Assembly: GCA_964587755.1 (NCBI GenBank) | Contig: CAZPMC010000006.1 | Span: forward strand, 5,488-69,487 | Direction: 5' to 3' | From: an uncultured Oscillospiraceae bacterium | Lineage (GTDB): Bacteria > Bacillota > Clostridia > Acetivibrionales > DTU013 | Length of the DNA stretch: 64,000 nucleotides | In this document: one piece after another, positions 15,263-51,108 of the stretch | How the letters are laid out: the number at the start of each line of letters is the position of its first letter | Position numbering within the stretch: the stretch's first letter is position 1 | The notes under the pieces: model-generated | What the model was told of the DNA's origin: nothing | Database searches by the model: none | Seen by the model: only the letters and a program-made list of their open reading frames with translations | Made by a program: the position numbers and the translations under genes

Positions 15263-15291
15263 TTGACTTTTACGACAAGAATATATATACT
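15263..15291 (+). promoter_or_regulatory. sigma-A promoter of the amidohydrolase/xdhD gene block
   Basis: TTGACT (15263-15268), 17-nt spacer, TATACT (15286-15291). This gives a 5' UTR of about 110 nt. Confidence 0.55.
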
Positions 15292-15409
15292 ATTATTACT
15301 CAAAGAGTTTACAATAATATTATAAAGATATAACAATTTCATGATTGCTTGAATTTTACATTCCGGTTTGTTAACACTTATAAAAATATAATAAAAAGGA
15401 GAAAAGGCA

Positions 15410-16765
15410 ATGAAAATTATTAAAAATGCAATGATCGTCGTACCTGACAAAGAAAAACGCTTAATCCGTGATGGATTTATCCGCATTGACGGCAATTTGA
15501 TTGCTGAGATTGACTCAATGGACAAGCTGACTCCTCAAAAGCTTGAAGGTGCAGAAGTCATCGACGCGAAGGGCAAAATTGCCATTCCAGGCTTTGTTTC
15601 CACCCATAGCCATTTGTACAGCGCTGTTGTACGCAGCTTACCTCACTCAGGCTATGATGATGTAGACTTCTCGTTTGTTTCCTGGATGGAGAGATTCTGG
15701 TTTGCAATGCTTGAAGACAAGGTTACCAGAGAGGATATTTATGCCGGCACATTGATTAACTGCATTGAAAACATAAAGCACGGTTATACAACAACATCTG
15801 ATACATGTGAAGGCTCCTACGCACTTCCCGGAGCATTGTTTGAAACCGGCAGGGCTGTTAAGGAATCGGGAATGCGCGGTGTACTTTCCTTTGAAACAAC
15901 AGGAAGAATCAGCGAAGAAAACGCTATGTTGGGACTCAAAGAGAATGTTGATTTTATTGAGCATTGCCGTAAGCATGAGACTGACGGACGTATAAGAGGT
16001 GTAGTAGGGGTACACACTACATATACCTGCTCAGGTGACCTGATTCAAAAATGCAAGGCAGAAGCTCAACGCCTTGGTGTGGGAATACAGATGCATCTTG
16101 CCGATGACCGCTGGCACAGCTTCCATTCAACTCTAAAGTATGGAAAACGCTGCCTGAAGTGGTTGGAAGATCTTGAATTCTTAGGACCCGACGTATTATT
16201 CTTCCACTGCAGCTATATGGATAACAGGCTTGATCCTGCTATTATGAAGCATTACGGCTGCAACATTTCGCACCAGCCTGTTTCCAATGCAAGCTTCGGT
16301 TTCTGGCCAAACATGGTTCCATTCATTGATGCAGGTGTAAATGTATCACTCGGAACTGATGGACAGACACAGTCCATGTTTGAAAATATGCGTGCTGCAC
16401 AGATGATACACAGAATCCGTTATGAAAATCTTGAGCTTCTTCCTGACGAGGAAATGTTTGAAATGGCAACAATAAACGGAGCAAAATCATTACATCTTGA
16501 AGATGAAATAGGTACTCTTGAGGTTGGTAAGAAGGCTGATATAGTACTGCTGAAAAATAACAGCCCGGTTCCTGTATTTGAGAACAATATTATGAACTTC
16601 ATTGTTACAGTAGCTGACAGTGCTCATGTGGATACAGTATTGATTGATGGAAGGATGGTAGTTAAGGGCGGCGAGTACTTACTGCTTGACGAGGAAGAAG
16701 TCAGGGCACGCTGCCAGGAGCAGGCTGTTGATTTCTGGAAGCGCAATGACTGGCCGACTCCATAA
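15410..16765 (+). CDS. amidohydrolase, SsnA-like (ATZ/TRZ chlorohydrolase/aminohydrolase family)
   Basis: 451 aa. Metal-binding STHSHLYS, SFETTGR...ENVDFIEH (compare E. coli SsnA CFETTDR...ENIRF), and a GTDG motif. Confidence 0.8.
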   Translation: MKIIKNAMIVVPDKEKRLIRDGFIRIDGNLIAEIDSMDKLTPQKLEGAEVIDAKGKIAIPGFVSTHSHLYSAVVRSLPHSGYDDVDFSFVSWMERFWFAMLEDKVTREDIYAGTLINCIENIKHGYTTTSDTCEGSYALPGALFETGRAVKESGMRGVLSFETTGRISEENAMLGLKENVDFIEHCRKHETDGRIRGVVGVHTTYTCSGDLIQKCKAEAQRLGVGIQMHLADDRWHSFHSTLKYGKRCLKWLEDLEFLGPDVLFFHCSYMDNRLDPAIMKHYGCNISHQPVSNASFGFWPNMVPFIDAGVNVSLGTDGQTQSMFENMRAAQMIHRIRYENLELLPDEEMFEMATINGAKSLHLEDEIGTLEVGKKADIVLLKNNSPVPVFENNIMNFIVTVADSAHVDTVLIDGRMVVKGGEYLLLDEEEVRARCQEQAVDFWKRNDWPTP

Positions 16766-16814
16766 AACGGCGTTTAATGAAAACTGTTTGCACAAACATA
16801 AAGGAGTAAATTAT

Positions 16815-18044
16815 ATGAGTGATTATATAGCAAAATATTCCGGCGATTATGTCGGAAAAGATAAGTATATAACAAATGAAGAAGTGTGCCAAATTCTCTC
16901 TGACATAGTGACTGTTGATAGCACATTCGGCAGAGAGGGAGAATGCGGAAGGCTGATTGAAAAGATATGCAAGGAGCATGGGCTTAATGTTGAGATTATG
17001 CCTGTGACCGATGAACGTTTCAATGTGATGATTACCGTCGGTGCAGACAGTTACAAGAGCAAAAAGCTCGGGCTGATGCTCCATGGACATTATGATACGG
17101 TACCGGCTTTGGATATGGAGGATCCCTTTGTTACTAAAATACGTGACAATAAAATGTGGGGAAGGGGTATTGTAGACCAAAAGTCAGGTTTGGTGGCCTC
17201 AATTTGTGCAGCAATTGCCATTAAGCGTTCAGGCAAGCAGCTTAAAAAACCTTTCTGTGTTGCTGCTGTTGTTGACGAGGAGTCAGAGCACAGGGGAAGC
17301 TATACATTAGTAAGAAGTGGAATAGATGCTGAATATGCAATTGTTACCGAGCCTACCAATACAAGAACTGTTGAGTTTGGCTGCAAAGGCACTACTCCCA
17401 TCCGTATTACAGTTAAAGGCCGTACTGCCCATGCAAGTAACCCTTGGATAGGGGTAAACGCAATTGAAAAGGCAATGCCGATATTGAACGGTTTGTTTGC
17501 TATGAAGTTCCCTGAGAAAGATTTGGGAGAGTTCGGAAAGCTACAAGGCACACTGTGTGTAAGCAAGCTTGATGCAGGAACGGCATACAATAATGTTCCC
17601 GGAGAAGCCGTTATATGGATGGACAGAAGAACCGTCCCCGGTGAAAATACACCGTTGGCTTTAGCCCAGGTAAATTTGGTTATTGCAGAAGCTAAGAAAC
17701 ATGATCCTGAGCTTGATGCCTTTGCAGAAGTAGCTCGTCCTGACTGGCATTGGCAGCCTATTCGCGAACGGGGTCTAAATCCCACAGTTATGGACAGTGA
17801 TTGTGAGATTTACCATATTCTTAAAAGGGCAGCTAATAAGAGCGGATTAACTACTTTAGAAAAGCGTTATTCCAACGGTTACAATGAAATGGATTTCCTA
17901 ATTAACGATTTGAATATACCGACGCTAGTTTACGGACCTGGTGATGGGCAGATGGCTCACAGCCCTCGTGAAGAAGTTGATATTGATGATGTCTGCAATG
18001 TAGCGGAAGTATATTGCAATATGATCGAAGAAATTTGCATGTGA
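16815..18044 (+). CDS. M20-family metallohydrolase (ArgE/DapE/N-carbamoyl-amino-acid amidohydrolase-like)
   Basis: LHGHYDTVP, GRGIVDQKSG and VVDEESEH metal-ligand motifs. AAGGAG lies upstream of ATG 16815. The ORF-track start at 16686 overlaps the preceding gene. Confidence 0.8.
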   Translation: MSDYIAKYSGDYVGKDKYITNEEVCQILSDIVTVDSTFGREGECGRLIEKICKEHGLNVEIMPVTDERFNVMITVGADSYKSKKLGLMLHGHYDTVPALDMEDPFVTKIRDNKMWGRGIVDQKSGLVASICAAIAIKRSGKQLKKPFCVAAVVDEESEHRGSYTLVRSGIDAEYAIVTEPTNTRTVEFGCKGTTPIRITVKGRTAHASNPWIGVNAIEKAMPILNGLFAMKFPEKDLGEFGKLQGTLCVSKLDAGTAYNNVPGEAVIWMDRRTVPGENTPLALAQVNLVIAEAKKHDPELDAFAEVARPDWHWQPIRERGLNPTVMDSDCEIYHILKRAANKSGLTTLEKRYSNGYNEMDFLINDLNIPTLVYGPGDGQMAHSPREEVDIDDVCNVAEVYCNMIEEICM

Positions 18045-18100
18045 GACAAAAAAGAAGCAATGAAGGGCTCACGACTACTATGATTTAAGGGGGAAGTGAT

Positions 18101-19189
18101 ATGGCATTTAATGTTGATCTGTCTGTAGAAGTAGCAGGTGTAAAAATGAAAAACCCTCTGGTTCTTTCAGAAGGGCCATTGTCAGGAAGCAAGCGACTGA
18201 TTGAACGTGCCGCACAGCACAATATAGGAGCAATCGTAACAAAAAGTATCCAGCAGAAAGCGAATGTATCCGCAAACCCGTACATGATTGCTGCAAATCG
18301 CGGCTTGATTAATGCGGATTGGACTGATATCGGATTAGAAACATGGCTTGAAGAACTTAAGAAGATAGATATACCGATGCCGCTGATTACGAATATTGGA
18401 ACAAACAATGTCCCGCCAAAGCAGGCTGCCGAATGGGCAGGTATTCTGCAGGAGCATGGTGCGGCTATGGTCACATTCTCTGATTATGAGCCTGAAAATC
18501 TGGTTGATGCCGTAAGCTATGCACGAAAAGAAGTTGATGTACCGATTATGGTTAAGCTGCCTCCTTTTGTAAAGAATATTGCAGATTTGTGCAAACGCCT
18601 TGAAGCGGCAGGCGTAACCATGATAGCTGCAATGGACGCAGTCGGGCCTGCAATGGATATAGATATATCAAAACGCAAACCTATTCTCGGTAATGACGGT
18701 GCATTTGGTTATATGTCATCAGCTCCCATATTCCCGCTGACTCTTGCATATATTGCTGAAATCGCAGGAAGCGTTAGTGTACCTGTACTTGGTGTCGGAG
18801 GCGTTACAAGTGCAGCTGATGTAATTAAGCTGATAATGGCCGGTGCCACATGTGTTGGTATGGTAGGTACTCCTATTCTTAAAGGCCTTGGAATATTTGA
18901 CAAGATTGAAGCTGATCTTCGCAAATGGATGGCAGAAAACAACGTTAAGAACCTGGCAGAGATAAGAGGCTGTGCACAGCCGTATATACATCAGACTGAG
19001 AAATACGGATTGAAAGCCAAGGTCGATTATGACACATGTACTGCATGTGGTTTGTGCTTTAAATCATGCTATGCGGCTGCTTTGACACCAAACAGTGATA
19101 AAAAGCCTGTTGTTAACACCCAATACTGCTCAGGTTGCGGTGTTTGCCAGAGTGTATGCCCTGTTAAGGCTATTAATGTTAGAGAATGA
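18101..19189 (+). CDS. dihydroorotate/dihydropyrimidine dehydrogenase-like flavoprotein fused to a 2x[4Fe-4S] ferredoxin domain (PreA-like)
   Basis: DHOD-type TIM-barrel N-terminus (VAGVKMKNPLVLSEGP...VTKSI). The C-terminus carries CTACGLCFKSC and CSGCGVCQSVCP. Confidence 0.7.
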   Translation: MAFNVDLSVEVAGVKMKNPLVLSEGPLSGSKRLIERAAQHNIGAIVTKSIQQKANVSANPYMIAANRGLINADWTDIGLETWLEELKKIDIPMPLITNIGTNNVPPKQAAEWAGILQEHGAAMVTFSDYEPENLVDAVSYARKEVDVPIMVKLPPFVKNIADLCKRLEAAGVTMIAAMDAVGPAMDIDISKRKPILGNDGAFGYMSSAPIFPLTLAYIAEIAGSVSVPVLGVGGVTSAADVIKLIMAGATCVGMVGTPILKGLGIFDKIEADLRKWMAENNVKNLAEIRGCAQPYIHQTEKYGLKAKVDYDTCTACGLCFKSCYAAALTPNSDKKPVVNTQYCSGCGVCQSVCPVKAINVRE

Positions 19190-19205
19190 AATGAGGAAGA
19201 ACACT

Positions 19206-20393
19206 ATGCTAAATGAACAACGTCGCAATGCTTTGATAGAGCTTTGCAGGAATTTGATCAGTACTTATAGCGTAACCGGTTCGGAAAAGGATATTGCTCT
19301 GCTTATATGTGACCGGATGAAAGCGGCAGGCTTTGATGACGCCTGGGTGGACGAGCAGGGTAATGCAATAGGAAAGATAAAAGGTACAGGCGGAGGAAAA
19401 ACAGTACTTTTAGACGGACATATGGACACTGTTGAGGTTTCAGACATAAAGAAGTGGAAGCATGATCCTTTCGAGGCTGAAATAGACAATGGCCGTATTT
19501 ACGGAAGGGGAGCCGCTGATATGAAAGGTGCGCTTGCTGCCATGATTATGGCAGCAGGCTGGCTTGCCTCTGACAAGCGCCCGGCGGGCGATGTATATGT
19601 CACGGGCACTGCTATGGAGGAGATCTCTGAGGGATGTGCGTTGTCTCACATAATAAAAAATATAAAGCCGGACTATGTCATTATCGGTGAGGCAAGCATG
19701 CTAAATCTAAACATTGGTCAGCGTGGCCGGGGTGAAATTGTGGTAAGTACAAAAGGCAAGCCTGCTCACTCCTCAAATCCAGAGGTTGGTGTAAATGCTG
19801 TGTACAAGATGGTTAAGCTGATTGAAGGCATCCGCAATATCCCTGTTTCCAATCATGAATTACTCGGCGAAGGCATATTGGAGTTGACTGATATTATCTC
19901 ATCTCCATATCCCGGAGCATCTGTTGTGCCAGAATTGTGTACTGCCACATTTGACAGACGGCTTTTGATAAATGAGACTGAAGAGACAATTCTTGAACCA
20001 ATCCGTAAGCTCATAAATGAGCTTAAGAAGGAAGATCCAAAATTCGATGCCGAGACATATGTTGCAGGTATGGATTTGGAATTCTATACAGGATTTAAAA
20101 CAAAGCATTTAAAATTTGCCCCTGCATGGTGTCTTGATAAAGAAAAGAACGCTGATCTGATAAATTGTGCACTTGAGGCATTACGCACTTCAGGACTTGA
20201 TCCCAAAGTGTCAACCTATAAATTCTGCACAAACGGAAGTGCTTCTGCAGGCATTCACAACATTCCTACAATTGGCTTCGGACCGTGTGCGGAATCTCAA
20301 GCCCATGTAGTGGATGAATATGTTGAAATTGCTCAGCTGGAAGGAGCATGTTGCGGTTATTACAATTTGATTGACGCACTTTGCCGTCTTTAG
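19206..20393 (+). CDS. YgeY-like M20 metallohydrolase
   Basis: 395 aa. Has DGHMDTV, GRGAADMKG, QRGRGEIVV..GKPAHSS, and FCTNGSASAGIHNIPTIGFGPCAESQAHVVDE, which parallels E. coli YgeY [39 protein letters not shown] RBS upstream of ATG 19206. Confidence 0.8.
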   Translation: MLNEQRRNALIELCRNLISTYSVTGSEKDIALLICDRMKAAGFDDAWVDEQGNAIGKIKGTGGGKTVLLDGHMDTVEVSDIKKWKHDPFEAEIDNGRIYGRGAADMKGALAAMIMAAGWLASDKRPAGDVYVTGTAMEEISEGCALSHIIKNIKPDYVIIGEASMLNLNIGQRGRGEIVVSTKGKPAHSSNPEVGVNAVYKMVKLIEGIRNIPVSNHELLGEGILELTDIISSPYPGASVVPELCTATFDRRLLINETEETILEPIRKLINELKKEDPKFDAETYVAGMDLEFYTGFKTKHLKFAPAWCLDKEKNADLINCALEALRTSGLDPKVSTYKFCTNGSASAGIHNIPTIGFGPCAESQAHVVDEYVEIAQLEGACCGYYNLIDALCRL

Positions 20394-20422
20394 GGTGAAT
20401 CAAAGTTAAAGGGAGAATGTTT

Positions 20423-21838
20423 ATGGAGCTTTTAATTAAAAATGGAACGCTAATCACCGTTGATAATGAGAGAAGGGTTTTTAAAGGAGATATTGCCGTT
20501 GACAAAGGAAGGATCGTCCGCATAGGAGAAGACTTATCCGACATCAAGGCAGATAAGGTGATTGATGCTGATGGATGTGCTGTTATGCCCGGAATGATCA
20601 ACACCCACACACATATATATCAGGCTCTCATTGAAGGTATTGGCTACGATATGCATTTTGAACCCTGGAATTGGCGTTTTCTGTTTCCGGTTGTAAGCAG
20701 GATGACACCGGAGCATTCTTATGTGAGTGCGCAGGTGGCTGCTTTGGAGATGATAAAAAGCGGAACTACAACAGTATGCGACCACTGGTATATGCATACA
20801 TATTTTGAGAACGTACGCAATGTTGCGCAAGCTTTGGATCAAAGCGGAATGCGCTCCTGCATCGTATATGGTTTATTGGATCGTTCCTTTGCAGGTTCAG
20901 CCATTGACGACGAAAGCATGACAATGGTACACACCCGGGAGGATTTAATGGCTGATGCGGAAAAATTTGCAGCAAAATGGCATAGGACAAGACGCACCAC
21001 AGTTGCATTAGGAGTGGGAACAACGCAGGATGCTTCCCCAGAGCTTTTAAAAATGTCCCAGGAGTTTTGCCTTGCAAACGGTATGCAAAACAACTTCCAT
21101 GTTGCTGGCTGGAGCGAGCTTATTACAAACTGCTATAAACAATTTGGAATGCGTGATGTTGAGAACCTTGCGAGGCTCGGATATGTAGGACCAAACATGG
21201 TATATGTCCATGCCGTGTGGCTGACTCCCGAGGAGATAAAGATAATTGGGGATACGGATACAAAGGTAGCCCACTGCCCGGTTGCCAATTCGCAGCTGGC
21301 ATATGGTGTTTCACCTGTTAGCGAAATGTTGGCACGGGACGTTGCAGTCGGCTTGGGTACAGATGGTGGTGCAAGTTACACTTATGACATGTTTGAGGTG
21401 ATGCGTACAGCATCATATTTGCAAAAGCAGAAAAATCTATCAGCCGACTTTTTAACTGCTGAGCAGGCAATAGAGCTTTCCACAATTAACGGCGCCCGGG
21501 TGCTGAATATGCAGGACGAGATTGGTTCATTGGAAGCAGGTAAGAAGGCTGACATTATTATTGTAGATTTTAATAAACCACACCTGATTCCTGTAAACCG
21601 CTACACTCCCAAATTAGTGTACAGCGCAAACGGCGGTGATGTAAGGACCACCATAATCGACGGAAAGGTTGTTATGGAGGACTATGAGGTTAAGACACTT
21701 AATGAAAAAGAAATAATGAAGGATGCTATTCGCTGTGCTAAGGAACTTGTCAGCGGCGCATCAAATGATGATACAGAAAAATTACTAAATGCTCCGTGGG
21801 GACGCAAACGTCCTTATTGGAGAAGCAAGGAGGATTAA
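20423..21838 (+). CDS. amidohydrolase, ATZ/TRZ family (paralog 2)
   Basis: MPGMINTHTHIYQ, a GTDG motif and GSLEAGKKADIIIVD. GGGAG sits 7 nt upstream of ATG 20423. Confidence 0.8.
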   Translation: MELLIKNGTLITVDNERRVFKGDIAVDKGRIVRIGEDLSDIKADKVIDADGCAVMPGMINTHTHIYQALIEGIGYDMHFEPWNWRFLFPVVSRMTPEHSYVSAQVAALEMIKSGTTTVCDHWYMHTYFENVRNVAQALDQSGMRSCIVYGLLDRSFAGSAIDDESMTMVHTREDLMADAEKFAAKWHRTRRTTVALGVGTTQDASPELLKMSQEFCLANGMQNNFHVAGWSELITNCYKQFGMRDVENLARLGYVGPNMVYVHAVWLTPEEIKIIGDTDTKVAHCPVANSQLAYGVSPVSEMLARDVAVGLGTDGGASYTYDMFEVMRTASYLQKQKNLSADFLTAEQAIELSTINGARVLNMQDEIGSLEAGKKADIIIVDFNKPHLIPVNRYTPKLVYSANGGDVRTTIIDGKVVMEDYEVKTLNEKEIMKDAIRCAKELVSGASNDDTEKLLNAPWGRKRPYWRSKED

Positions 21839-21841
21839 GTT

Positions 21842-23200: not shown

Positions 23201-23263
23201 AATTTTGGAAGGCAATAGTTTTAAGCGATATAAATTTGGAATGATAGGAGATGGATAACTGCA

Positions 23264-41628: not shown

Positions 41629-41652
41629 CCAGAATAGTTGGGAGTAAAATTA

Positions 41653-43020: not shown

Positions 43021-43046
43021 ACGGATTAAAGGAGATGTATTATTTT

Positions 43047-43808: not shown

Positions 43809-43860
43809 CACGCCAGTAATATCTGATACAAAATTAAAGTACCAACGGAGGATATAAACT

Positions 43861-44622
43861 ATGCGGTTAAAGGATAAAGTAGCAATTATTACCGGAGGCG
43901 CAAAAGGGATGGGCAGAACAAGCGTGCTCAGATTCCTGGAAGAGGGTGCAAAGGTAGTAGTTGCTGATATAGACGAAAAGGGAATGCTTGAAACTGTAGA
44001 ACTAGGCAAGCAGATTAGTGAAAATGTAATAGGCATGAAGGTAGATTTGACAAAGGAAAATGAAGTTAAAAATTTAGTTGATAAAACAGTCGAAGCTTTT
44101 GGGACAATAGATGTGCTTTTTAATAATGCAGGTATGAATCATGCTGCGCTCTTACATGAAACAACCCTGGAGGACTGGGAGCTTGTTTTTGATGTGAATG
44201 TCAAGAGCATGTTTCTCACATGTAAATATGTTCTGCCCATTATGATGGAAAAGCGCAAGGGCTCCATAATAAACACAGCATCACCCGGGGCATTAGTAGG
44301 CTTAAGAGGAATTTCAGCTTATTGCGCATCGAAAGGTGCAGTCCCGTCACTAACAAGAAGTATTGCTATTGACTATGCCCAGTACAATATCAGAGCTAAT
44401 TTTCTGTGCCCGGGTGTTATTTTGACAGAAATGACAGAAAAAATTATTCAGTCCAAGCCGGACCCGGATGAGTTCAGAGAATGGTACCGTAAGGCAAGGC
44501 CGCTGGGACGATTTGGCGAGCCTGTTGAAATAGCAAATGCCGCAGTTTATCTGGCATCAGATGAAACAACATTTATGACAGGTGCCTCCATTGTAGCAGA
44601 TGGTGGGTTTACAGCACAATAA
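43861..44622 (+). CDS. SDR-family oxidoreductase (tandem paralog 2)
   Basis: TGGAKGMG, NNAG and YCASK. Collinear with the upstream SDR along its whole length. Confidence 0.85.
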   Translation: MRLKDKVAIITGGAKGMGRTSVLRFLEEGAKVVVADIDEKGMLETVELGKQISENVIGMKVDLTKENEVKNLVDKTVEAFGTIDVLFNNAGMNHAALLHETTLEDWELVFDVNVKSMFLTCKYVLPIMMEKRKGSIINTASPGALVGLRGISAYCASKGAVPSLTRSIAIDYAQYNIRANFLCPGVILTEMTEKIIQSKPDPDEFREWYRKARPLGRFGEPVEIANAAVYLASDETTFMTGASIVADGGFTAQ

Positions 44623-44644
44623 TACAAACCGGGAGGAAGATAAA

Positions 44645-45595
44645 TTGAAAATTTATATGCCTACAGTTTTTCCCGATCCTTTAATGGAAGGCTGGGATTC
44701 AGATATTGTACTTGATGTCAACCGTACCGGGTATCCGGTAAGCAGGGAGGAAATGAAGGAGCACATTAAGGATGCTGATGCTGTTATCATAAACCTTGAT
44801 GATGTATTTGACAAAGAGATGATTGACAGTGCCCCAAAATTGAAGGTTATTACCTTATTTGCAGGCAGCACTTACAATATTGATGTGGAATACGCCAAAA
44901 GCCGCGGGATTACAGTGTGTACCACCCCCGGCGAGATTTTTGAAAACACGGCAGACTTGACGTTTGCGCTTTTATTGTCTGCTGCCAGAAGGATACCTGA
45001 GGCAGACAGATATATCCGTGCCGGCAAATATAACAATTGGTGCCCCGCAGACCTTTTAGGCAGTGATATTTATGGGAAGACACTTGGAATATTAGGCCTA
45101 GGTATGATTGGCACTGCAGTGGCAAGACGTGCAAAAGGTTTTAATATGAAGATACTCTATAATGCTGCCCGTGGACCTAAGCCGGAACTGGAAGAGGAAC
45201 TTGGCTGCCAATTCGTTTCATTTGAAGAACTTATTAAGCAATCCGACTTTTTAAGCTTACACTGCAAGCTAAATCCTGACACTGAACACATTATTGGCAG
45301 GCGCGAGATTTCTATGATGAAAAAAAGCGCCTATTTGATTAATACGGGAAGAGGAAAGCTTGTTGACGAAGAAGCACTGGCTGATGCTTTGGAGGCAAAA
45401 GAAATCGCAGGTGCAGGACTTGATGTATTCGAATATGAGCCGAAGGTTACACAAAAGCTTTTAACATTAGATAACGTTGTTTTGACACCACATCTGGGAG
45501 CATCAAGCCTGGACAACCGTTTGGAGATGGCAAGAATTGCATTCCGTTGTACAAGGGATGCCCTGAAAGGCTTAGAACCGGAGTTCCATGCGTAA
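44645..45595 (+). CDS. D-isomer-specific 2-hydroxyacid dehydrogenase (glyoxylate/hydroxypyruvate reductase-like)
   Basis: GILGLGMIGTAVARR NAD motif, NTGRGKLVDE and TPHLGAS. TTG 44645 sits 8 nt after GGGAGG; ATG 44657 is an alternative start. Confidence 0.82.
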   Translation: MKIYMPTVFPDPLMEGWDSDIVLDVNRTGYPVSREEMKEHIKDADAVIINLDDVFDKEMIDSAPKLKVITLFAGSTYNIDVEYAKSRGITVCTTPGEIFENTADLTFALLLSAARRIPEADRYIRAGKYNNWCPADLLGSDIYGKTLGILGLGMIGTAVARRAKGFNMKILYNAARGPKPELEEELGCQFVSFEELIKQSDFLSLHCKLNPDTEHIIGRREISMMKKSAYLINTGRGKLVDEEALADALEAKEIAGAGLDVFEYEPKVTQKLLTLDNVVLTPHLGASSLDNRLEMARIAFRCTRDALKGLEPEFHA

Positions 45596-45656
45596 GCTTA
45601 AATTAATTTTGAAAAGTCATTGCATATTTAATTTTGATAGATAGGGAGGAATTTTT

Positions 45657-46688
45657 ATGGCAAAAGTAAAGGTTGGTGTAGCAGGCTATGGTGTTATCGG
45701 CCAACGCCTTGCAGATGGTGTTGCACTTCAGGAGGATATGGAGCTTGTAGGTATTGCTGATGTGGCTCCAACACTTTCTATCAGAGCTTTAAAAGAAAAG
45801 GGTATGCCCTACGACCTGTATTTGGTAAATGGCAGCAATAAGTCACAGTTTGATGAGCTTAACATTCCTGTCTCGGGCACCTTTGACGACCTTCTTGACA
45901 AAGTAGACATCATGCTTGATTCATCACCCGGCGGTGTAGGAGAAAAGAATAAGGAAATCTACCAGGCGAAGGGTGTAAAGGCAATATTTCAGGGTGGAGA
46001 AAAGAACTCTGTTGCAGATGTCTTTTTCCATGGTTATGCCAACTATGAAAAGGGATTAAATCAAAATTACCTTAAGCTTACAAGCTGTAACACCACCGGT
46101 TTAATACGTTCGGTTGACTGCCTTGACAGGCTTTTCGGAATTGAAAGAGTTGCAATTACTATAGTTAGACGTGTTGCAGACCCCGGCGACTATCATAGGG
46201 GCTTGACAAATGCTTTACAGATGGAAAAAGCACCGTCACATCAGGCTGTTGACCTTATGGAAATCATGCCCCATGTGGAGGCTACAGGAATACTTGTTCA
46301 CACTCCAGTAACCCATGGACATATTATTACTGTAGTAGCTAAGGGCAAAGAGAAAATTACTAAGGAAATGGCTCTTGAAGCATTTTCAAAGCATGAACGC
46401 ATCAGAATAGTTTCAATTGACGAAGGCTTTAAGGGGAATGCATCTTTGTTCAGATATGCCCGTGACCTTGGTAACCCCAGAGGCGATATGTACGAGATTG
46501 CCATATGGTCTGACTCTATTGTTGAATACGGTGACGAAATCATGTTTGCTATAAACATTCCCCAGGAGGCTGTAACAATACCTGAAACCATTGATGGAAT
46601 CAGGGCGGCAATGGGAATGCAAACCGATAGATTAGAGGCTGTTGGGAAAACAAATAAATATTTGGGGTTGGGAAAGTGGAAAAAATGA
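45657..46688 (+). CDS. gap: glyceraldehyde-3-phosphate dehydrogenase, type II (archaeal type)
   Basis: 343 aa. KVGVAGYGVIGQRLADGVALQEDMELVGIAD and the catalytic SCNTTGL, as in archaeal phosphorylating GAPDH rather than the bacterial SCTTN type. Confidence 0.8.
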   Translation: MAKVKVGVAGYGVIGQRLADGVALQEDMELVGIADVAPTLSIRALKEKGMPYDLYLVNGSNKSQFDELNIPVSGTFDDLLDKVDIMLDSSPGGVGEKNKEIYQAKGVKAIFQGGEKNSVADVFFHGYANYEKGLNQNYLKLTSCNTTGLIRSVDCLDRLFGIERVAITIVRRVADPGDYHRGLTNALQMEKAPSHQAVDLMEIMPHVEATGILVHTPVTHGHIITVVAKGKEKITKEMALEAFSKHERIRIVSIDEGFKGNASLFRYARDLGNPRGDMYEIAIWSDSIVEYGDEIMFAINIPQEAVTIPETIDGIRAAMGMQTDRLEAVGKTNKYLGLGKWKK

Positions 46689-47929
46689 GAATTAAACAAC
46701 TTAATGGGATGAATGTAAGTGGAAAGCATGTACTTTTTCGTCCTGACATAAATTCTCCCATAGATCCTGATACGAAGAAAATTGTTAATGACAACAGAAT
46801 CAGAAAAATGGCCCCGACTCTTAAGTACCTTCTTGATGCAGGCGCTGCTGTTGCTATTATCGCACATCAGGGAGATACGCTGGACTACCAGAATTTGATA
46901 TCAATGCAAGAGCACGCTGAAAAGCTGTCTGAGGTAGTCGGATCTGAGATTAAATATATTGATGATGTGTGCGGGGATGCCGCCATAGCTTACGTCAAAG
47001 CCTTAAAGCCCGGCGAATGCATATTGCTTGGGAACTTGCGTTACCTTACCGAGGAGGTATCCACATTTGAACGGGATGTAAAGCTTACACCCGAACAGAT
47101 GAAGGATACATATCTCATTCGCAGGCTGGCGCCTTTGTTTGATCTCTATGTAAATGACGCTTTTTCTGCAGCCCATAGAAATTGTCCGAGCATGACGGGA
47201 TTTCAACACCTGCTTCCGTCAGCGGCAGGATTTCAGTTTTCCGATGAGTATTTTGCACTCAGCTCAGTGCGGGACAATACCAAGAGCCCTGCAGTGTTTG
47301 TGCTTGGCGGCGCCAAAATAAGCGATGCCTTCGGAATGATTGAGACTGTTCTTAAAAATGGAACGGCGGACAAGATATTAACAACAGGTATTACGGCAAT
47401 AACAATGCTGATTGCGTCAGGAGCTGACGTTGGAGAAAAGACATTAAAATTTCTAAAGGACAGGGATCTACTTGTTTTTGCAGAGCCGGCAAAAAAATAC
47501 TTAAAGGAATATGGCAGTAAAATAGAAATGCCTGTCGATTTAGCATATGAAGACAATGGTAGCCGGAAAGAAATAAGTGTTGATAAATTGCCTTTGGATA
47601 CTTTATATCCGGATATCGGGTCTAAAACCATAGAAAAATACTCATCCATACTAAAGGATGCAGGCACAATATTTGCAAACGGACCAGCCGGAGTTTACGA
47701 GAATCCGCTTTTCACAAACGGAACAGAGGGTATATGGAAAGCAATTGCTGACAGTGACGCCTATTCTGTCATTGGCGGTGGTGATACTGTAAGCTCTGCG
47801 ACAAAGTTTATAGATGTAAAGAAAATAAGCTATGTATGTACAGCCGGCGGAGCAATGGTGCGTTTTATGTCGGGTAAGAAATTACCGTTGATAGAGGCAA
47901 TGGAAAATTCATATGGAGGTGTGAAATGA
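46685..47929 (+). CDS. pgk: phosphoglycerate kinase, archaeal-like
   Basis: VLFRPDINSPIDP, AHQGD...DY, LGNLRYLTEEV and YVNDAFSAAHRNCPSMTGF resemble archaeal PGK, not the bacterial SHLGRPKG type. ATGA overlap with gap. Confidence 0.78.
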   Translation: MRIKQLNGMNVSGKHVLFRPDINSPIDPDTKKIVNDNRIRKMAPTLKYLLDAGAAVAIIAHQGDTLDYQNLISMQEHAEKLSEVVGSEIKYIDDVCGDAAIAYVKALKPGECILLGNLRYLTEEVSTFERDVKLTPEQMKDTYLIRRLAPLFDLYVNDAFSAAHRNCPSMTGFQHLLPSAAGFQFSDEYFALSSVRDNTKSPAVFVLGGAKISDAFGMIETVLKNGTADKILTTGITAITMLIASGADVGEKTLKFLKDRDLLVFAEPAKKYLKEYGSKIEMPVDLAYEDNGSRKEISVDKLPLDTLYPDIGSKTIEKYSSILKDAGTIFANGPAGVYENPLFTNGTEGIWKAIADSDAYSVIGGGDTVSSATKFIDVKKISYVCTAGGAMVRFMSGKKLPLIEAMENSYGGVK

Positions 47930-48750
47930 CCCCACTAAAGAAGTTTGCAACACAAATACGAATAGAGCAGATTAAATGTATTAAGCATCGCGGCTTTGGA
48001 CATATAGGGGGCGCTTTGTCGGCAACCGACCTGATAGCGGCACTCTACGGCGGTATCATGCGAATTGATCCGAAGAATCCAGAATGGCAGGACAGGGACA
48101 GGTTTGTATGCTCCAAAGGCCATGCCGGGCCTGCATTGTATGCAGCACTGGCTTTGAAGGGTTATTTCCCGTTTGATTGGCTTCTGACACTGAACAGACC
48201 AGGGACAAAGCTTCCCAGTCACTGTGATATGAATCTTACACCGGGTATCGATATGACAACCGGCTCTCTTGGTCAGGGAGCATCGACTGCCGCAGGCATG
48301 GCACTTGCACTGAAAAACAGTAAATCGGACGCCCGGGTCTACTTGCTTCTTGGCGATGGCGAATGTAATGAGGGTCAGGTGTGGGAAATGGTTATGTTTG
48401 CTGCAGCCAAAAAAATAAATAATCTTATTGCCTTTGTAGACTATAACCACAAACAGTTAGATGGCAGGACTGAGGATATCATTGATTTAGGTGATTTAAA
48501 ATCAAAGTTTGAATCCTTCGGTTGGTTTACCCAGTCTGTGGATGGCAACGATCCGGATGTAATTTTTGAAGCCATAAACAAAGCCAAAGACGAGCAAGGT
48601 GACAGACCTGCGATGATAATATTGAACACAATAAAGGGTGCTGGAGTTCCTTCAATAGAGAAAATGGAATTTAATCACCACATAAATATGAGTCCGGAAT
48701 TCTCGGATGAAGCAATAGCACATCTTGAGAAATTGCTTGAGGAGGTGTAG
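47926..48750 (+). CDS. transketolase, N-terminal (ThDP-binding) subunit
   Basis: 274 aa. GHIGGALSATDLIAALY and GDGECNEGQVWE. ATGA overlap with pgk. Confidence 0.9.
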   Translation: MTPLKKFATQIRIEQIKCIKHRGFGHIGGALSATDLIAALYGGIMRIDPKNPEWQDRDRFVCSKGHAGPALYAALALKGYFPFDWLLTLNRPGTKLPSHCDMNLTPGIDMTTGSLGQGASTAAGMALALKNSKSDARVYLLLGDGECNEGQVWEMVMFAAAKKINNLIAFVDYNHKQLDGRTEDIIDLGDLKSKFESFGWFTQSVDGNDPDVIFEAINKAKDEQGDRPAMIILNTIKGAGVPSIEKMEFNHHINMSPEFSDEAIAHLEKLLEEV

Positions 48751-48752
48751 AG

Positions 48753-49709
48753 ATGTTTACAGTTATTTATAATGGTGAATATGAAAAGGTTCTATTGAGG
48801 GACGTTTTTGCAAGTACTATGGAAAAGCTGTTTAAGCTTGACGATCAGGTAGTGTATCTTGATGCAGATCTGATGAACGCTTTTTCTACCCTCCAGTTAT
48901 CTAAAGATTACCCTGAAAAGGCAATTGACTGTGGTGTGCAGGAAGCCAATATGATCGGTATCGCAGCCGGCATGTCGGCAGTGGGGAGAAAACCGTATGT
49001 TCATACATTTGCAGCCTTTGCGTCCAGGCGCTGTTTTGACCAGGTATTCTTATCCGTAGGGTATTCTAAGAACAGTGTCCGGATTATTGGTTCAGATGCA
49101 GGTGTTACTGCTGCATACAATGGCGGAACACATATGCCCTTCGAGGATGTAGCAATGTACAGGACTATTCCCGGTGCAGCCGTTTTTGATATTGTGGATT
49201 CAGTACAATTTGAAAATGTATTGATGAACACAAAGGACAGACCCGGAGTTACATATATCCGTACAATCCGAAAAAAAGCGGTGGGTGTGTATGGTCCCGG
49301 CAGTGAATTTGAAATAGGGAAAGCCAACGTATTGCGGGATGGTTCAGATGTGACTATCATTGCATGCGGAATCATGGTTGCTGAGGCTCTAAAGGCTGCC
49401 CAAATCCTTGAAGAGCAGGGCATATCTGCCGCAGTTATTGATATCGTTACCATTAAGCCCGTTGACGAGCAAACTGTCATAGAATATGCAAAAAAGACCG
49501 GTGCTGTCGTGACTGCTGAAAATGCAAATATTATAGGCGGGCTTGGCAGTGCGGTTGCGGAAGTAGTAAGCAGGAAGCAGCCCACTAAGATGGGGTTTGT
49601 AGGTATAAATGACCTGTACGGGGAAGTCGGGGAAGAGGAATACTTGAGACAGCGTTTTGAACTGACTCCCGAGAAAATCGTAAAGGTAGTAAAGGATACA
49701 GTTAAATAA
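48753..49709 (+). CDS. transketolase, C-terminal (pyrimidine-binding) subunit
   Basis: 318 aa. DCGVQEANMIGIAAG and the GGTHMPFEDVAMYR pattern. Starts 2 nt after the N-terminal subunit gene. Confidence 0.9.
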   Translation: MFTVIYNGEYEKVLLRDVFASTMEKLFKLDDQVVYLDADLMNAFSTLQLSKDYPEKAIDCGVQEANMIGIAAGMSAVGRKPYVHTFAAFASRRCFDQVFLSVGYSKNSVRIIGSDAGVTAAYNGGTHMPFEDVAMYRTIPGAAVFDIVDSVQFENVLMNTKDRPGVTYIRTIRKKAVGVYGPGSEFEIGKANVLRDGSDVTIIACGIMVAEALKAAQILEEQGISAAVIDIVTIKPVDEQTVIEYAKKTGAVVTAENANIIGGLGSAVAEVVSRKQPTKMGFVGINDLYGEVGEEEYLRQRFELTPEKIVKVVKDTVK

Positions 49710-49745
49710 TGCAGCAATTAAAATATCAGGATTGAGAGGTATACT

Positions 49746-50513
49746 ATGAGTACGTCACTTTTTGATTTAACCGGAAAGATGGCCTTGATAACAGGGTCAG
49801 GGCAAGGCCTTGGCTTTGTAATAGCAAGAGGATTGGGAAAAGCAGGCGCAACTATAGTTTTAAATGATATTGATAAGGATAAATTGGATAAAGCAGTTGA
49901 GATTTTGAGAAATGAAGGGATTGAAACCCACGGAAGCTTGTTCAATGTCACAAAGAAGGATGAAATCGAGAAGGAAGTCAGGTTCATTGAGGAGAAAATA
50001 GGGCCTATTGACATACTTTTCAACAATGCAGGGATACAGCGCAGAATTCCTTTGGAAGATTTCCCTGAATCCGACTGGGATGATATAATGGAGATAAACT
50101 TAAAAGGTGTTTTCCTGACAAGCCAGCAGGTTGTTAAGGGAATGATCTCGCGCAGAAGAGGCAAGATTGTAAATATTTGCTCACTTCAAAGCGAGCTGGG
50201 ACGTCAAACCATAGCACCCTATGCTGCATCTAAAGGCGGTGTAAAGATGCTGACCCGGGGGATGGCTGTTGACTGGGGCAAGCACAATATTCAGACTAAC
50301 GGAATAGGGCCAGGTTATTTTATTACTGAAATGACGCAGAAGCTGGCAGACGACCCGGAATTTGACGCGTGGCTTAAGGCAAGAACTCCGGCAGACCGCT
50401 GGGGATTTCCGGAAGAGCTGGTGGGCACTGCAATTTTCCTGTCCTCTGAAGCATCTAACTTTATTAACGGCCAGATTATTTATGTTGACGGGGGCATATT
50501 AGCTTCAATCTAA
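49746..50513 (+). CDS. SDR-family oxidoreductase, gluconate 5-dehydrogenase/KduD-like
   Basis: LFDLTGKMALITGSGQGLG, NNAG, YAASKGG and a C-terminal GQIIYVDGG. Confidence 0.8.
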   Translation: MSTSLFDLTGKMALITGSGQGLGFVIARGLGKAGATIVLNDIDKDKLDKAVEILRNEGIETHGSLFNVTKKDEIEKEVRFIEEKIGPIDILFNNAGIQRRIPLEDFPESDWDDIMEINLKGVFLTSQQVVKGMISRRRGKIVNICSLQSELGRQTIAPYAASKGGVKMLTRGMAVDWGKHNIQTNGIGPGYFITEMTQKLADDPEFDAWLKARTPADRWGFPEELVGTAIFLSSEASNFINGQIIYVDGGILASI

Positions 50514-50529
50514 GGAGAAGTTCGGTTAA

Positions 50530-51108
50530 ATGACAGCTATAATATTGGCGGCAGGTTTTTCAAAGCGATTTAGGGGAAATAAACTGCTTGCCAAAATTAA
50601 TGGAAAACCCATAATTTCACGAGTTGTTGAAACTGTTCAGAAATGCGGCTTCGAGGAGATTATCCTTGTAAGCCGTTCTTCTGATGTAAAAGAGTTTTTT
50701 AAAGACGCAGATATAAAGGTCGTAATTAATGACAATGCGGCACTTGGAATCAGCACGTCCATAAAATGCGGTATTAGAAATGCCAGGTCTTCGGATTCAT
50801 TTATGTTTTTTGCGGCAGACCAACCCTTTATAGATGAAAAAACTGTTAAAGCATTGTTAGGAGCCTATAAAAACAAGAAGGGTTCTATAATAGTACCCAA
50901 ATACAATGGCGTCAACGGTAACCCTGTTATTTTTGCAGGACGTTGGAAGACAGAGCTTCTAATGTTGACAGGTGATATTGGAGGAAGGGCTATAATAAAA
51001 GCAAATCCTGATAAGGTTCATTATGTGCAGATAGATAATGAGGCTGCAGGAATAGATATAGATACAAGGGATGATTACAGGCTTAACAAAAACAGAGAAA
51101 ACAGCTAG
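50530..51108 (+). CDS. MobA-like nucleotidyltransferase, probable molybdenum cofactor cytidylyltransferase (MocA/YgfJ-like)
   Basis: 192 aa. The N-terminal AIILAAGFSKRFRGNKLL is typical of MobA/MocA NTP-transferases. Confidence 0.72.
   Translation: MTAIILAAGFSKRFRGNKLLAKINGKPIISRVVETVQKCGFEEIILVSRSSDVKEFFKDADIKVVINDNAALGISTSIKCGIRNARSSDSFMFFAADQPFIDEKTVKALLGAYKNKKGSIIVPKYNGVNGNPVIFAGRWKTELLMLTGDIGGRAIIKANPDKVHYVQIDNEAAGIDIDTRDDYRLNKNRENS

Follow-up and report, generated by a model that had tools for sequence, protein, structure and literature searches.

The 64,000-nucleotide stretch of DNA considered here comes from an uncultured Oscillospiraceae bacterium (GenBank assembly GCA_964587755.1, contig CAZPMC010000006.1, positions 5,488 to 69,487) and is called the window below. 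Between positions 15410 and 51108 it carries a closely spaced set of genes for amidohydrolases, a molybdenum hydroxylase, an ABC importer and sugar-handling enzymes, which raises the question of whether these genes form one catabolic unit and, if so, what that unit degrades. The original prediction, made from the sequence alone, had answered yes to the first part: it saw one unit around six counterparts of an Escherichia coli gene neighborhood, importing a nucleoside-like substrate and feeding the sugar into lower glycolysis. We find that the locus is a conserved cluster of about 31 genes, in which most of the core enzymes are only distant relatives of known ones; a literature search found no description of this cluster. 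The reading that we prefer, and that we regard as evenly poised between right and wrong, is that the locus is one conserved multi-operon catabolic unit for a sugar-bearing N-heterocycle, which works in a similar way to the reductive urate pathway but does not belong to it. Judged from its gene content, the substrate is most plausibly a purine-type nucleoside.

The cluster and its conservation

Open reading frames (ORFs) of the window were assigned using NCBIfam profiles with their curated cut-offs, together with Pfam domains, and start codons were refined using the Shine-Dalgarno sequence and the length of homologs. This gave 31 genes, numbered g1 to g31, in four blocks. Block A (15410–28655, plus strand) contains g1–g9: an SsnA-like amidohydrolase, an M20 hydrolase, a protein with a DHO_dh domain and 2x[4Fe-4S], a YgeY-family hydrolase, an ATZ/TRZ amidohydrolase, a glycoside hydrolase family 1 (GH1) protein, a second ATZ/TRZ amidohydrolase, a molybdenum hydroxylase and DpaL. 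Block B (28802–31778, plus strand) contains g10–g13 (DeoR, TtdA, TtdB and DeoC), and Block C (31940–35044, minus strand) contains g14–g16, which encode a methyl-accepting chemotaxis protein (MCP), RpiB and a xylose-isomerase-like TIM barrel. Block D (35303–51108, plus strand) begins with a hydantoinase-like gene, the substrate-binding protein, ATPase and two permeases of a BMP-family importer, a DadD-type deaminase and two short-chain dehydrogenases/reductases (SDRs), and continues with a 2-hydroxyacid dehydrogenase, a type II glyceraldehyde-3-phosphate dehydrogenase (GapII), phosphoglycerate kinase (Pgk), a split transketolase (TktN and TktC), a further SDR and a MocA-like gene. All the gene types named in the original prediction are thus present within 15.4–51.1 kb according to NCBIfam and Pfam; it had overlooked the RpiB gene at 33703–34164 and the TIM-barrel gene at 34175–35044. 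The very short gaps that it described are also there: with refined starts, the nine genes of Block A are tightly packed, with intergenic gaps of 3–63 bp.

Related loci were collected by a genome scan with g8, by homolog searches with the GH1 protein and GapII, by context look-ups with exact proteins and by a metagenome scan, and were then scored with tblastn; all the relatives come from metagenomes or metagenome-assembled genomes (MAGs). The genes g1, g2, g3, g5, g6, g7 and g8 form a core found as a set in no fewer than 11 distinct contigs, with amino-acid identities of 59–93% (L012 with L016, L002, L013, L014, L020, L021/22, L023/24, L026, L028, L029 and L030). The most conserved gene of the locus is g1, at 82–92% across relatives. 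Both g2 and g3 are kept in every locus whose view reaches their position, g5 lies directly upstream of g6 in every locus whose view reaches g5, and g7 is conserved in most loci.

The arrangement around this core varies. In L012 plus L016, which are one 41-kb JGI contig with a GH1 protein about 90% identical to that of the window, the genes are colinear with the window from g1 to the MocA-like gene and beyond. The only close relative in the genome scan, L002 (MAG OH_CBB_14; GH1 79%), has one uninterrupted same-strand array in the order SDR(g30)–g1–g2–g3–g4–g5–GH1–g7–g8–RidA–DeoR–TtdAB–DeoC–DpaL–TktN–TktC–GapII–Pgk. L013 (GH1 72%) has BMP, TIM-barrel and DeoC genes upstream and an energy-coupling factor (ECF) transporter after GH1, followed by g7, g8 and BMP, and L014 (GH1 59%) runs g3–g5–GH1–ECF–GapII–Pgk–TtdA–TtdB–BMP–BMP. 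L020 (GH1 65%) has DeoC, TIM barrel, RpiB and DeoR upstream, then g1 to g7, a BMP ABC importer, a DadD-like deaminase, an SDR and a 2-hydroxyacid dehydrogenase. The order in L021 (GH1 69%) is g8–SDR–SDR–2-hydroxyacid dehydrogenase–g1–g2–g3–g5–GH1–g7; L023/L024 (GH1 70%) combine an ECF transporter, RpiB, a TIM barrel, g1–g2–g3–g5–GH1–g7–g8 and a BMP ABC importer; and L030 (GH1 68%) has GapII–RpiB–TIM barrel–DeoC, then g1 through GH1, and then ECF–hydantoinase-like–g7–g8.

Nearly all the accessory families of the window are therefore found beside the core in changed orders and orientations, the recurring ones being the BMP ABC importer, the DadD-like deaminase, the SDR with the 2-hydroxyacid dehydrogenase, RpiB with the TIM barrel, DeoC, DeoR, TtdAB, GapII/Pgk, the split transketolase and the hydantoinase-like gene. 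Shuffled order combined with conserved membership is a classical sign of functional linkage, and it argues that core and accessories form one unit. DeoC lies near the core in L012, L002, L013, L020 and L030, DeoR (g10) in L012, L002 and L020, and TtdAB (g11–g12) in L012, L002 and L014, in the last case directly after GapII–Pgk. RpiB is beside the core in L020, L023 and L030, and the TIM barrel g16 in L013, L014, L020, L023, L026 and L030. Homologs of the BMP substrate-binding protein at 61–69% identity are found in L013, L014, L020 and L024, together with the ATPase and permeases in L020 and L024; the deaminase g22 follows the transporter in L016 and L020. The SDR g23 and the 2-hydroxyacid dehydrogenase g25 lie beside the core in L020 and L021, with g24 as well in L021, and an 80%-identical copy of g30 is directly upstream of g1 in L002. 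The GapII–Pgk pair occurs in L016, L002 and L014 (in L030 the GapII gene is cut at the contig edge), and it is accompanied by the split transketolase in L016, L002 and the Anaerolineaceae loci L017–L019.

Other genes are less constant. The MocA-like g31 was seen in L016 only, and the MCP g14 only in the close relative L012, so that its membership in the unit is doubtful. DpaL (g9) has counterparts in L012 (81%) and in L002 (48%, at another position) only; in L021 and L023 no g4 stands between g3 and g5; and relatives of g17 are found in L016 (81%) and L030 (51%), and possibly also in L020, whose edge cuts an Amidohydro_1/DHOase gene. The co-occurrence in relatives that the original prediction wanted checked is thus real, since the gene set recurs in those 11 or more contigs and is more than chance, and its single unit holds for the core and most accessories, with the MCP, DpaL, YgeY and hydantoinase-like genes inconstant. 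Its division into a canonical core and extras does not match what is conserved: DpaL, YgeY and the hydantoinase come and go, whereas the supposedly extra g5, GH1 and g7 are constant. The latter three are, as it held, absent from the known pathway.

The relatives show some further arrangements. An ECF transporter, consisting of two ATPases with T and S components, lies beside the core in L013 (11449–15743), L014 (5066–9327), L023 (1–3028), L026, L030 and L034, in most of them directly after GH1; behind it, L013, L014 and L023 encode a conserved protein of 303–311 residues that has no Pfam match and is absent from the window. In L002 a RidA-type deaminase gene (12939–13328) follows the molybdenum enzyme, at the place where the window has DpaL, and the more distant DpaL (48%) is found after DeoC at 16588–17787. 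L025 (Ga0366808_1159, 4582–8153) has g5–GH1–g7 and a partial g8 followed by inverted g4–g3–g2, and has the appearance of a chimeric assembly or an inverted duplication.

Core enzymes and the urate pathway

In 2025, two studies reconstituted the reductive uric-acid (2,8-dioxopurine) pathway of E. coli, C. difficile and C. sporogenes (10.1101/2025.05.19.654654, 10.1101/2025.04.24.650524), a result that supersedes the statement in the original prediction that the chemistry of the matching E. coli neighborhood is largely unassigned. According to these two studies, XdhD/DOPDH first reduces urate to 2,8-dioxopurine, which is dearomatized by YgfK or, in C. difficile, by UacX, a PydA homolog that contains flavin mononucleotide (FMN) and Fe-S clusters, has no flavin adenine dinucleotide (FAD), and replaces YgfK. 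SsnA then opens the ring and HyuA acts next; the 2-ureido group is cleaved either by YgeW with carbamate kinase or by UacY, which is of the D-aminoacylase type; YgeY follows, and YgeX finally yields pyruvate. The C. difficile variant has neither YgeW nor carbamate kinase. The same work linked residue E606 of XdhD to the orientation of urate and used the SsnA-family amidohydrolase as the marker of the cluster. A second example of an FMN and [4Fe-4S] architecture without FAD and NADPH domains is the ferredoxin-dependent PydAc (PMC7332683).

Against this background, the proteins of the locus (all on the plus strand) form a recognizable but remote set. The best NCBIfam family for g1 (15410–16765), an amidohydrolase of the ATZ/TRZ class, is SsnA, at 280 and 302 bits against the cut-offs of 455.5 and 444 for TIGR03314 and NF005540. 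Its identity to E. coli SsnA is 28%, and it has the SsnA-specific indel pattern but HLAD in place of the HAAE of SsnA. The hydantoinase/dihydropyrimidinase-like cyclic amidohydrolase g17 (35303–36601) reaches 245 with TIGR02033, where the cut-off is 393, and shares 30% identity with E. coli HyuA; its best solved relative is the D-hydantoinase 1yny (E 2e-53). The MocA-like molybdenum cofactor cytidylyltransferase g31 (50530–51108; Pfam NTP_transf_3) scores 177.6 against 186.45 for TIGR03310 and is 25% identical to E. coli MocA; it would supply the cytosine-dinucleotide cofactor for g8.

The reductase g3 (18101–19189) consists of an FMN-binding DHO_dh domain and C-terminal 2x[4Fe-4S], the latter forming one Fdx domain, and has no FAD or NAD(P)H domain, which is the architecture described for PydAc and UacX. 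It scores below the PreA and PyrD cut-offs. From this likeness in domain architecture, g3 is probably a ferredoxin-dependent ring reductase of the PydAc/UacX type. It had earlier been set outside the canonical gene set as a PreA-like flavo-ferredoxin; given that UacX, of the same architecture, replaces YgfK in C. difficile, it would belong inside it.

The molybdenum enzyme g8 (24651–27434; the ORF opens at 24606) is a fused 2x[2Fe-2S] and molybdopterin hydroxylase without an FAD domain. Its best family is the selenium-dependent xanthine dehydrogenase TIGR03311 (719, cut-off 830), its identity to E. coli XdhD and XdhA is 28% and 31%, respectively, and its best solved relative is the aldehyde oxidoreductase 1sij (E 2.5e-128), which is likewise a fused Fe-S/Mo protein without FAD. 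The label XdhD-like does not fit: g8 reaches 348 against a cut-off of 1102 for the XdhD-type model TIGR03313, and comparison with E. coli XdhD shows that it lacks the insertion carrying E606. On this sequence evidence g8 is not of the XdhD type.

The two M20 enzymes are g2 and g4. The ArgE/DapE-type deacylase g2 (16815–18044) has an ORF that opens at 16686; the start at 16815 was chosen from the Shine-Dalgarno sequence AAGGAG and the homolog length of 409 residues. It falls just below the cut-off of TIGR01910 (213.6 against 217.6) and is a candidate ureido- or N-acyl-cleaving enzyme, which could stand in for UacY by position alone. The YgeY-family hydrolase g4 (19206–20393; the ORF opens at 19095) passes NF009555 (432, cut-off 321), fails TIGR03526 (268, cut-off 321.5) and is 32% identical to E. 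coli YgeY. The 2,3-diaminopropionate ammonia-lyase g9 (DpaL/YgeX; start at 27441 or 27459, end at 28655) passes the equivalog cut-off of TIGR03528 (612, cut-off 532) and is 49% identical to E. coli YgeX. Thus, among the six predicted E. coli counterparts, DpaL passes cleanly and YgeY in one of two models, and the others are remote and below the cut-offs. Across the locus as a whole, the proteins above curated cut-offs are DpaL, YgeY (in that one model), TtdA, TtdB, DeoC, RpiB, GapII, the DadD-type deaminase and GH1.

Two further ATZ/TRZ amidohydrolases flank GH1. In g5 (20417–21838) the motif is HVAG, without the catalytic Glu of deaminases, and the best solved relative is the 8-oxoguanine deaminase 7ww2 (E 4e-56); the gap between g5 and g6 is 3 bp. 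In g7 (23264–24619) the deaminase motif HxxE is present as HMCE; the protein resembles nucleoside deaminases of the methylthioadenosine/S-adenosylhomocysteine/adenosine type, with 4dzh and 4f0r as best solved relatives (E 2e-60).

A tblastn search with E. coli YgeW, YqeA, YgfK, YqeB, YqeC, YgfM and XdhB found no homolog in the 64 kb, and SelD is not among the annotated ORFs of the window, as the original prediction had said of ygeW, carbamate kinase, ygfK, yqeB/yqeC and selD. It had counted the missing ygfK, ygeW and arcC as an unmet expectation. Their absence is not an anomaly; it is expected because the clostridial, UacX-type variant lacks them too.

These results allow a simpler explanation to be considered, namely that Block A and the hydantoinase are a C. 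difficile-type urate cluster acting on urate or xanthine, and that the sugar and transport operons are unrelated to it or loosely linked. There is a candidate for each published step (g8, g3, g1, g17, g2 in the role of UacY, g4 and g9), YgeY and DpaL pass curated cut-offs, the best family of g8 is the selenium-dependent xanthine dehydrogenase, and the absence of ygfK, ygeW and arcC fits the clostridial variant. Nevertheless, we consider this explanation unlikely. The marker enzyme g1 falls far short of SsnA in both bit score and identity, g8 is below all curated cut-offs and without the E606 insertion, and no UacY-type enzyme was identified. Moreover, g17, g9 and g4 are the inconstant genes, the constant g5, GH1 and g7 have no role in urate breakdown, and the accessory sugar and transport genes accompany the core in shuffled order.

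The GH1 protein

The product of g6 (21842–23200, plus strand) is a full-length match to the GH1 model TIGR03356 (533, cut-off 478), and belongs to a distinct clade that we call GH1*. It was predicted to lack the catalytic nucleophile, and it does: it has the motifs TFDEP and ITANG where the family has T-x-NEP and ITENG, so that the nucleophile position is an Ala, encoded by GCC, which aligns with the Glu of ISESG in the solved β-glucosidase 8in1. The acid/base Glu of the NEP motif is kept, but the Asn before it has become Asp (TFDEP). In addition, His121 is replaced by Met, Trp401 by Phe and His57 by Phe, and the change at His57 is, like the others, fixed throughout the clade.

A homolog search placed 53 sequences in the GH1* clade at 58–100% identity, followed by a step to ordinary β-glucosidases at 54% or less; when metagenomes were scanned with the GH1* alignment, 80 loci came back, of which 7 belonged to the clade and the others encoded ordinary β-glucosidases. 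All 53 members replace three residues that are invariant in 66 ordinary GH1 proteins: His121 by Met or Trp, Asn165 by Asp, and Trp401 by Phe. In GH1 structures these residues line the sugar (−1) subsite. The clade also keeps the sequence DNLEW, which in GH1 structures holds the Glu/Trp pair that binds O4 and O6 of the sugar. The nucleophile itself is variable, being Glu in 45 members, Ala in 7 and Gly in 1, and its losses are scattered through the clade. The nearest relative of the window protein, at 90% identity, has Glu. Comparison of this pair gives 0.058 nonsynonymous substitutions per site (dN) and 1.34 synonymous ones (dS), a dN/dS of about 0.04, which is in the same range as for g5 and g7. 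GH1* thus appears to be a functional, constrained protein in which the classical nucleophile is dispensable, and constraint despite the loss of the nucleophile argues against an ordinary retaining glycosidase mechanism.

Transport, deaminase and sugar genes

The remaining genes bear on what is imported and on what becomes of the sugar. On the plus strand, g18–g21 (36826–41628) encode a BMP/PnrA-family ABC importer, with the substrate-binding protein at 36826–37923, the ATPase at 38023–39573 and the permeases at 39573–40682 and 40696–41628. The best solved relative of the substrate-binding protein is 7x0r, named Lbp (E 5.6e-55). A literature search for the code 7X0R gave no match; we take it from the name and size to be the structure of Lbp from C. 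thermocellum. Nucleoside-type import by g18–g21 is plausible by this homology. The crystal of C. thermocellum Lbp held guanosine (PMC9601137). Directly downstream, g22 (41653–43020, plus strand) is a deaminase of the DadD type (5'-deoxyadenosine/adenosine class), which passes NF005557 (545, cut-off 522) and has the HxxE motif as HVSE. Block B adds the DeoR-family regulator g10 (28802–29566, plus strand; NCBIfam) and the DeoC-type aldolase g13 (31119–31778, plus strand; TIGR00126, 175 against 117). We suggest a nucleoside-type substrate because of this combination: a BMP protein nearest to Lbp, two HxxE deaminases of which one passes the DadD model, and DeoR together with DeoC.

Between DeoR and DeoC, g11–g12 (29569–31094, plus strand) encode both subunits of a TtdA/TtdB-type Fe-S hydro-lyase. 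Both exceed the equivalog cut-offs for L(+)-tartrate dehydratase (NF006084, 501 against 365; NF006082, 366 against 264); this assignment to a substrate is made from sequence. On the minus strand, g14 (31940–33658) is the MCP, whose periplasmic sensor region has no Pfam match, g15 (33703–34164) is an RpiB/LacAB-family sugar-phosphate isomerase (TIGR01120, 177 against 139), and g16 (34175–35044; Pfam AP_endonuc_2) is the TIM barrel, nearest to the 5-keto-L-gluconate epimerase IolO but below its cut-off (NF041099, 231 against 300). Returning to the plus strand, the SDRs g23 and g24 and the D-2-hydroxyacid dehydrogenase g25 (likely start 44645) occupy 43035–45595; the two SDRs, at 237 and 245, exceed the cut-off of 215 for the subfamily named glucose 1-dehydrogenase. 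The third SDR, g30 (49746–50513, plus strand), is nearest to gluconate 5-dehydrogenase (NF005983, 377 against a cut-off of 408).

Type II (archaeal-type) GapII (g26) and Pgk (g27, start 46685) lie together at 45657–47929, followed by the transketolase halves g28 and g29 at 47926–49709 (NCBIfam), all on the plus strand. The archaeal character of both dehydrogenase and kinase had been predicted. GapII indeed passes the archaeal-type models NF003251 (407, cut-off 185) and TIGR01546 (301, cut-off 233), and among solved structures Pgk is closest to 2cun (289 bits), the archaeal enzyme of P. horikoshii, ahead of the bacterial 1php (216 bits). The L002 copy of GapII visibly contains SCNTT, the usual catalytic motif of GapII. 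The cluster Pgk proteins (window, L016, L002 and L014) read AHQGD, or AHQGSD in L002, where 2cun has HQGK and 1php has HLGR. In structures of this kinase, the basic residue at this position contacts the phosphate of 3-phosphoglycerate. Judging from these residues, Asp or Ser in place of Lys or Arg may mean an altered substrate.

GapII is more than 80% identical across many distant bacterial groups, and in the Anaerolineaceae loci L017–L019 (approximately 6000–14200) a TIM barrel is followed by GapII–Pgk–TktN–TktC, the same four families in the same order. The neighbors there are a Gfo/Idh/MocA oxidoreductase, a 622-residue thiamine pyrophosphate enzyme, LacI and LarA, and there are no heterocycle enzymes. 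Together, the occurrence in Anaerolineaceae and the high identity of GapII make this back-end a portable module, and the sequences suggest that it has spread horizontally. A literature search found no description of the function of a GapII/transketolase module.

The sugar genes lend themselves to another reading, in which the cluster acts on a hexoside whose N-heterocycle is not a purine, for example a pyrimidine-, pterin- or plant-derived β-glucoside, and GH1* releases the hexose. Speculatively, the hexose would pass through gluconate to 5-keto-gluconate, from which transketolase would form tartrate semialdehyde; this would be oxidized to L-tartrate, possibly via GapII/Pgk with a gain of ATP, and TtdAB would dehydrate L-tartrate to oxaloacetate. 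Such a route would tie transketolase, GapII/Pgk and TtdAB together. GH1* derives from β-glucosidases and has kept DNLEW, g23 and g24 exceed the glucose 1-dehydrogenase cut-off, g30 and g16 are nearest to gluconate 5-dehydrogenase and 5-keto-L-gluconate epimerase, and TtdAB pass the L-tartrate dehydratase cut-offs. GapII, Pgk, TtdA and TtdB are contiguous in L014, Asp or Ser in the cluster Pgk takes the place of the Lys of 2cun and the Arg of 1php, and the transketolase step is chemically precedented, since transketolase can turn 5-keto-gluconate into tartaric semialdehyde (PMC12016104, PMC7970118). We nonetheless hold this reading to be doubtful. The intermediates are proposed from gene families alone and the SDR assignments are all at family level only; nucleosides are indicated by the BMP protein and by both HxxE deaminases; and several relatives, like the Anaerolineaceae module, lack TtdAB. 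The conservation of GapII at more than 80% identity in many bacteria suggests ordinary glyceraldehyde 3-phosphate chemistry, as does the catalytic motif SCNTT.

Boundaries and regulation

Upstream, the cluster is bordered by a divergent iron-siderophore ABC operon (12159–15096, minus strand), and downstream by convergent genes for a sirtuin and a Cof phosphatase. No tRNA genes, flanking repeats or shift in GC content were found as signs of a mobile element, so that "island" here means a gene cluster and not a horizontally acquired island.

In the 313-bp gap between g1 and the iron-uptake operon there is a sigma-70-like −35/−10 candidate (TTGACT-17-TATACT, 15263–15291, plus strand) upstream of g1; as a putative Block A promoter it is weak, because promoter-like matches overall are at chance level. 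For riboswitches, Rfam at the gathering threshold found only a T-box in the whole window (300–537), and permissive scans of three promoter gaps gave no credible match. The leader upstream of the BMP gene, aligned across six loci, is conserved only with the closest relative. There are five copies of the 9-mer ATATAACAA in the window where 1.27 would be expected, and all of them lie inside the cluster and on the plus strand: at 15328, 35161 and 36720 in promoter-bearing gaps, and also at 16867 and 45028. The equivalent regions of relatives do not contain this 9-mer, and for that reason we treat it as a weak candidate for a shared operator.

The view that several adjacent operons (for a heterocycle, for tartrate/deoxyribose, a chemoreceptor, a nucleoside importer and sugar genes) merely stand next to each other without a common substrate can draw on the strand switch, on at least four promoter-bearing gaps, on the lack of a shared operator conserved in relatives, on the MCP being found only in the closest relative and on the other contexts of GapII–Pgk–transketolase, but it is very improbable, given that the accessory families recur by the core in new orders and orientations while the core proteins are only 59–86% identical, and that in L002 the core, DeoR–TtdAB–DeoC, DpaL, transketolase, GapII and Pgk are one uninterrupted same-strand array.

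The T-box leader itself (106 bits, above the gathering score) precedes ilvB–ilvC–leuA–cimA; it is ordinary control of an amino-acid operon and is unrelated to the cluster. The best named relative of IlvC comes from a MAG of Acetivibrionales (87% identity), the group to which this Clostridia lineage probably belongs.

Proposed pathway

The comparisons above establish which genes are present, that they are conserved together, how their domains are arranged and which motifs they keep; by analogy with the reconstituted urate pathway, we infer the following mechanism for a single catabolic unit. The compound would enter through the BMP-family ABC importer and, in some relatives, through the ECF transporter as well or instead. 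The HxxE-type deaminases g7 and g22 would remove amino groups, and g8 would hydroxylate or dehydroxylate the ring, using the cytosine-dinucleotide cofactor provided by g31. The ring would then be dearomatized by g3, with reduced ferredoxin as the likely donor, and opened by g1, which would pull the unfavorable reduction forward in the way that SsnA does with YgfK or UacX in the urate pathway. The cleavage of further rings and ureido groups would fall to g5 and g17, together with the M20 enzymes g2 and g4. In this genome the carbon skeleton would end as 2,3-diaminopropionate, from which DpaL (g9) would produce pyruvate and ammonia. Coupled to g5, GH1* would separate the sugar from the heterocycle or from its ring-opened remnant, and would do so by something other than classical double displacement. 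The sugar would be processed by the SDRs, the TIM-barrel isomerase, RpiB, DeoC, the split transketolase and TtdAB, and the resulting aldehyde would be oxidized by GapII, allowing Pgk to harvest ATP. Of the route originally proposed, nucleoside import is thus plausible from the relationship of the BMP protein to Lbp; the entry of the sugar into lower glycolysis is inferred only, there being no phosphorylase, mutase or kinase to lead to it.

Several points weigh against this account. None of the 31 genes encodes a nucleoside phosphorylase, phosphopentomutase or sugar kinase. TtdAB have no obvious role in the catabolism of ribose or deoxyribose, and SDRs nearest to glucose 1- and gluconate 5-dehydrogenases and an IolO-like TIM barrel also fit such a route poorly. 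GapII–Pgk–transketolase may be a generic add-on, as it is found with unrelated front-ends. Several relatives lack DpaL, YgeY or the hydantoinase-like gene in the portion of the locus that can be seen, which means that the final steps may not be the same everywhere; most relatives are visible only as ±10 kb windows or short contigs. The locus switches strand at 31.9–35.0 kb, strand and gaps imply at least four or five transcription units, and scans of the locus for promoters and terminators did no better than chance. No riboswitch or known regulator in it points to a substrate, and to our knowledge no member of this cluster type has been characterized.

A bolder version of the same idea is that the core is an undescribed anaerobic pathway, in which the ring is reduced and opened while still attached to the sugar, GH1* releases the sugar without a covalent glycosyl-enzyme intermediate, and the sugar follows a new transketolase-dependent route. 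An N-glycosyl ureide or amine would then be what GH1* cleaves, and the lack of a covalent intermediate would explain the repeated loss of the nucleophile; the sugar would lead to substrate-level phosphorylation by a dedicated archaeal-type GapII/Pgk pair, possibly via tartrate semialdehyde and L-tartrate to oxaloacetate. We rate this as a rather distant prospect.

If the account of a single unit is correct, the logic of the urate pathway solved in 2025 has been reused with deeply diverged enzymes in a larger conserved assembly, which also includes importers of its own, a step that cleaves glycosides and a back-end that yields ATP. With a nucleoside or another glycosylated heterocycle as the substrate, strict anaerobes in biomass-degrading communities would have here a full route to carbon, nitrogen and energy from such compounds. 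The locus also poses two questions of enzymology: what a GH1 fold does once His121, Asn165 and Trp401 have been replaced and the nucleophile has become dispensable, and what the true substrate is of the widely transferred bacterial GapII–Pgk–split transketolase module.

Comparison with known systems

The closest known system is the urate cluster, with which the locus shares a molybdenum hydroxylase, a flavin/Fe-S reductase combined with an SsnA-type amidohydrolase, a cyclic amidohydrolase, an M20 ureido-hydrolase, DpaL giving pyruvate, and a MocA-type cofactor enzyme. Both YgeY and YgeX/DpaL are represented, by g4 (in one model) and g9. As in the clostridial variant, the reductase has no FAD domain, the molybdenum enzyme has no YgfM/FAD subunit, and carbamoyltransferase and carbamate kinase are both lacking. 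The proteins are nonetheless remote, at 25–32% identity to those of E. coli with the exception of DpaL at 49%, and the SsnA-like, hydantoinase-like, molybdenum and MocA-like proteins are all below the curated cut-offs. Two hallmarks of a urate cluster, a protein above the SsnA-family cut-off and a molybdenum enzyme of the XdhD/DOPDH type as judged by the curated models and by E. coli XdhD, are not found here; for the 2-ureido step the window contains no homolog of YgeW or YqeA, and no D-aminoacylase-type protein was recognized in it. The counterparts of YgeY, DpaL and the hydantoinase are inconstant in relatives of the locus. The urate cluster in turn has no equivalent of the constant g5, GH1* and g7 or of the sugar and transport module.

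With the reductive pyrimidine pathway that uses PydAc (Clostridium chromiireducens), the locus shares an FMN and [4Fe-4S] reductase without FAD/NADPH domains and, beside it, ring-opening enzymes of the amidohydrolase family and a carbamoyl-amino-acid hydrolase; unlike the locus, that pathway has no molybdenum hydroxylase, DpaL, GH1* or multiple ATZ/TRZ enzymes. Systems for deo-type catabolism with BMP/PnrA importers are alike in the DeoR regulator, the DeoC aldolase and the PnrA-family ABC importer. They differ in that a deo operon has a nucleoside phosphorylase and phosphopentomutase, which the locus lacks, and has no TtdAB, whereas here DeoR and DeoC bracket a TtdAB-type hydro-lyase.

Compared with GH1 β-glucosidases such as P. 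polymyxa BglA and T. maritima BglA, g6 is alike in its full-length match and its acid/base Glu. It differs in having Ala for the nucleophile Glu of a retaining β-glycosidase and in the three replaced residues of the canonical −1 subsite, and its gene lies in a heterocycle-degrading operon and not in a sugar operon. The Anaerolineaceae module, from sugar- or cyclitol-type loci, matches the window at 84% identity in GapII, 64% in Pgk and 55–66% in transketolase, and differs in having neither TtdAB nor heterocycle enzymes. Set beside these systems, the locus is best read as a variant of reductive N-heterocycle catabolism to which a glycoside-cleaving step and a sugar-handling module have been added.

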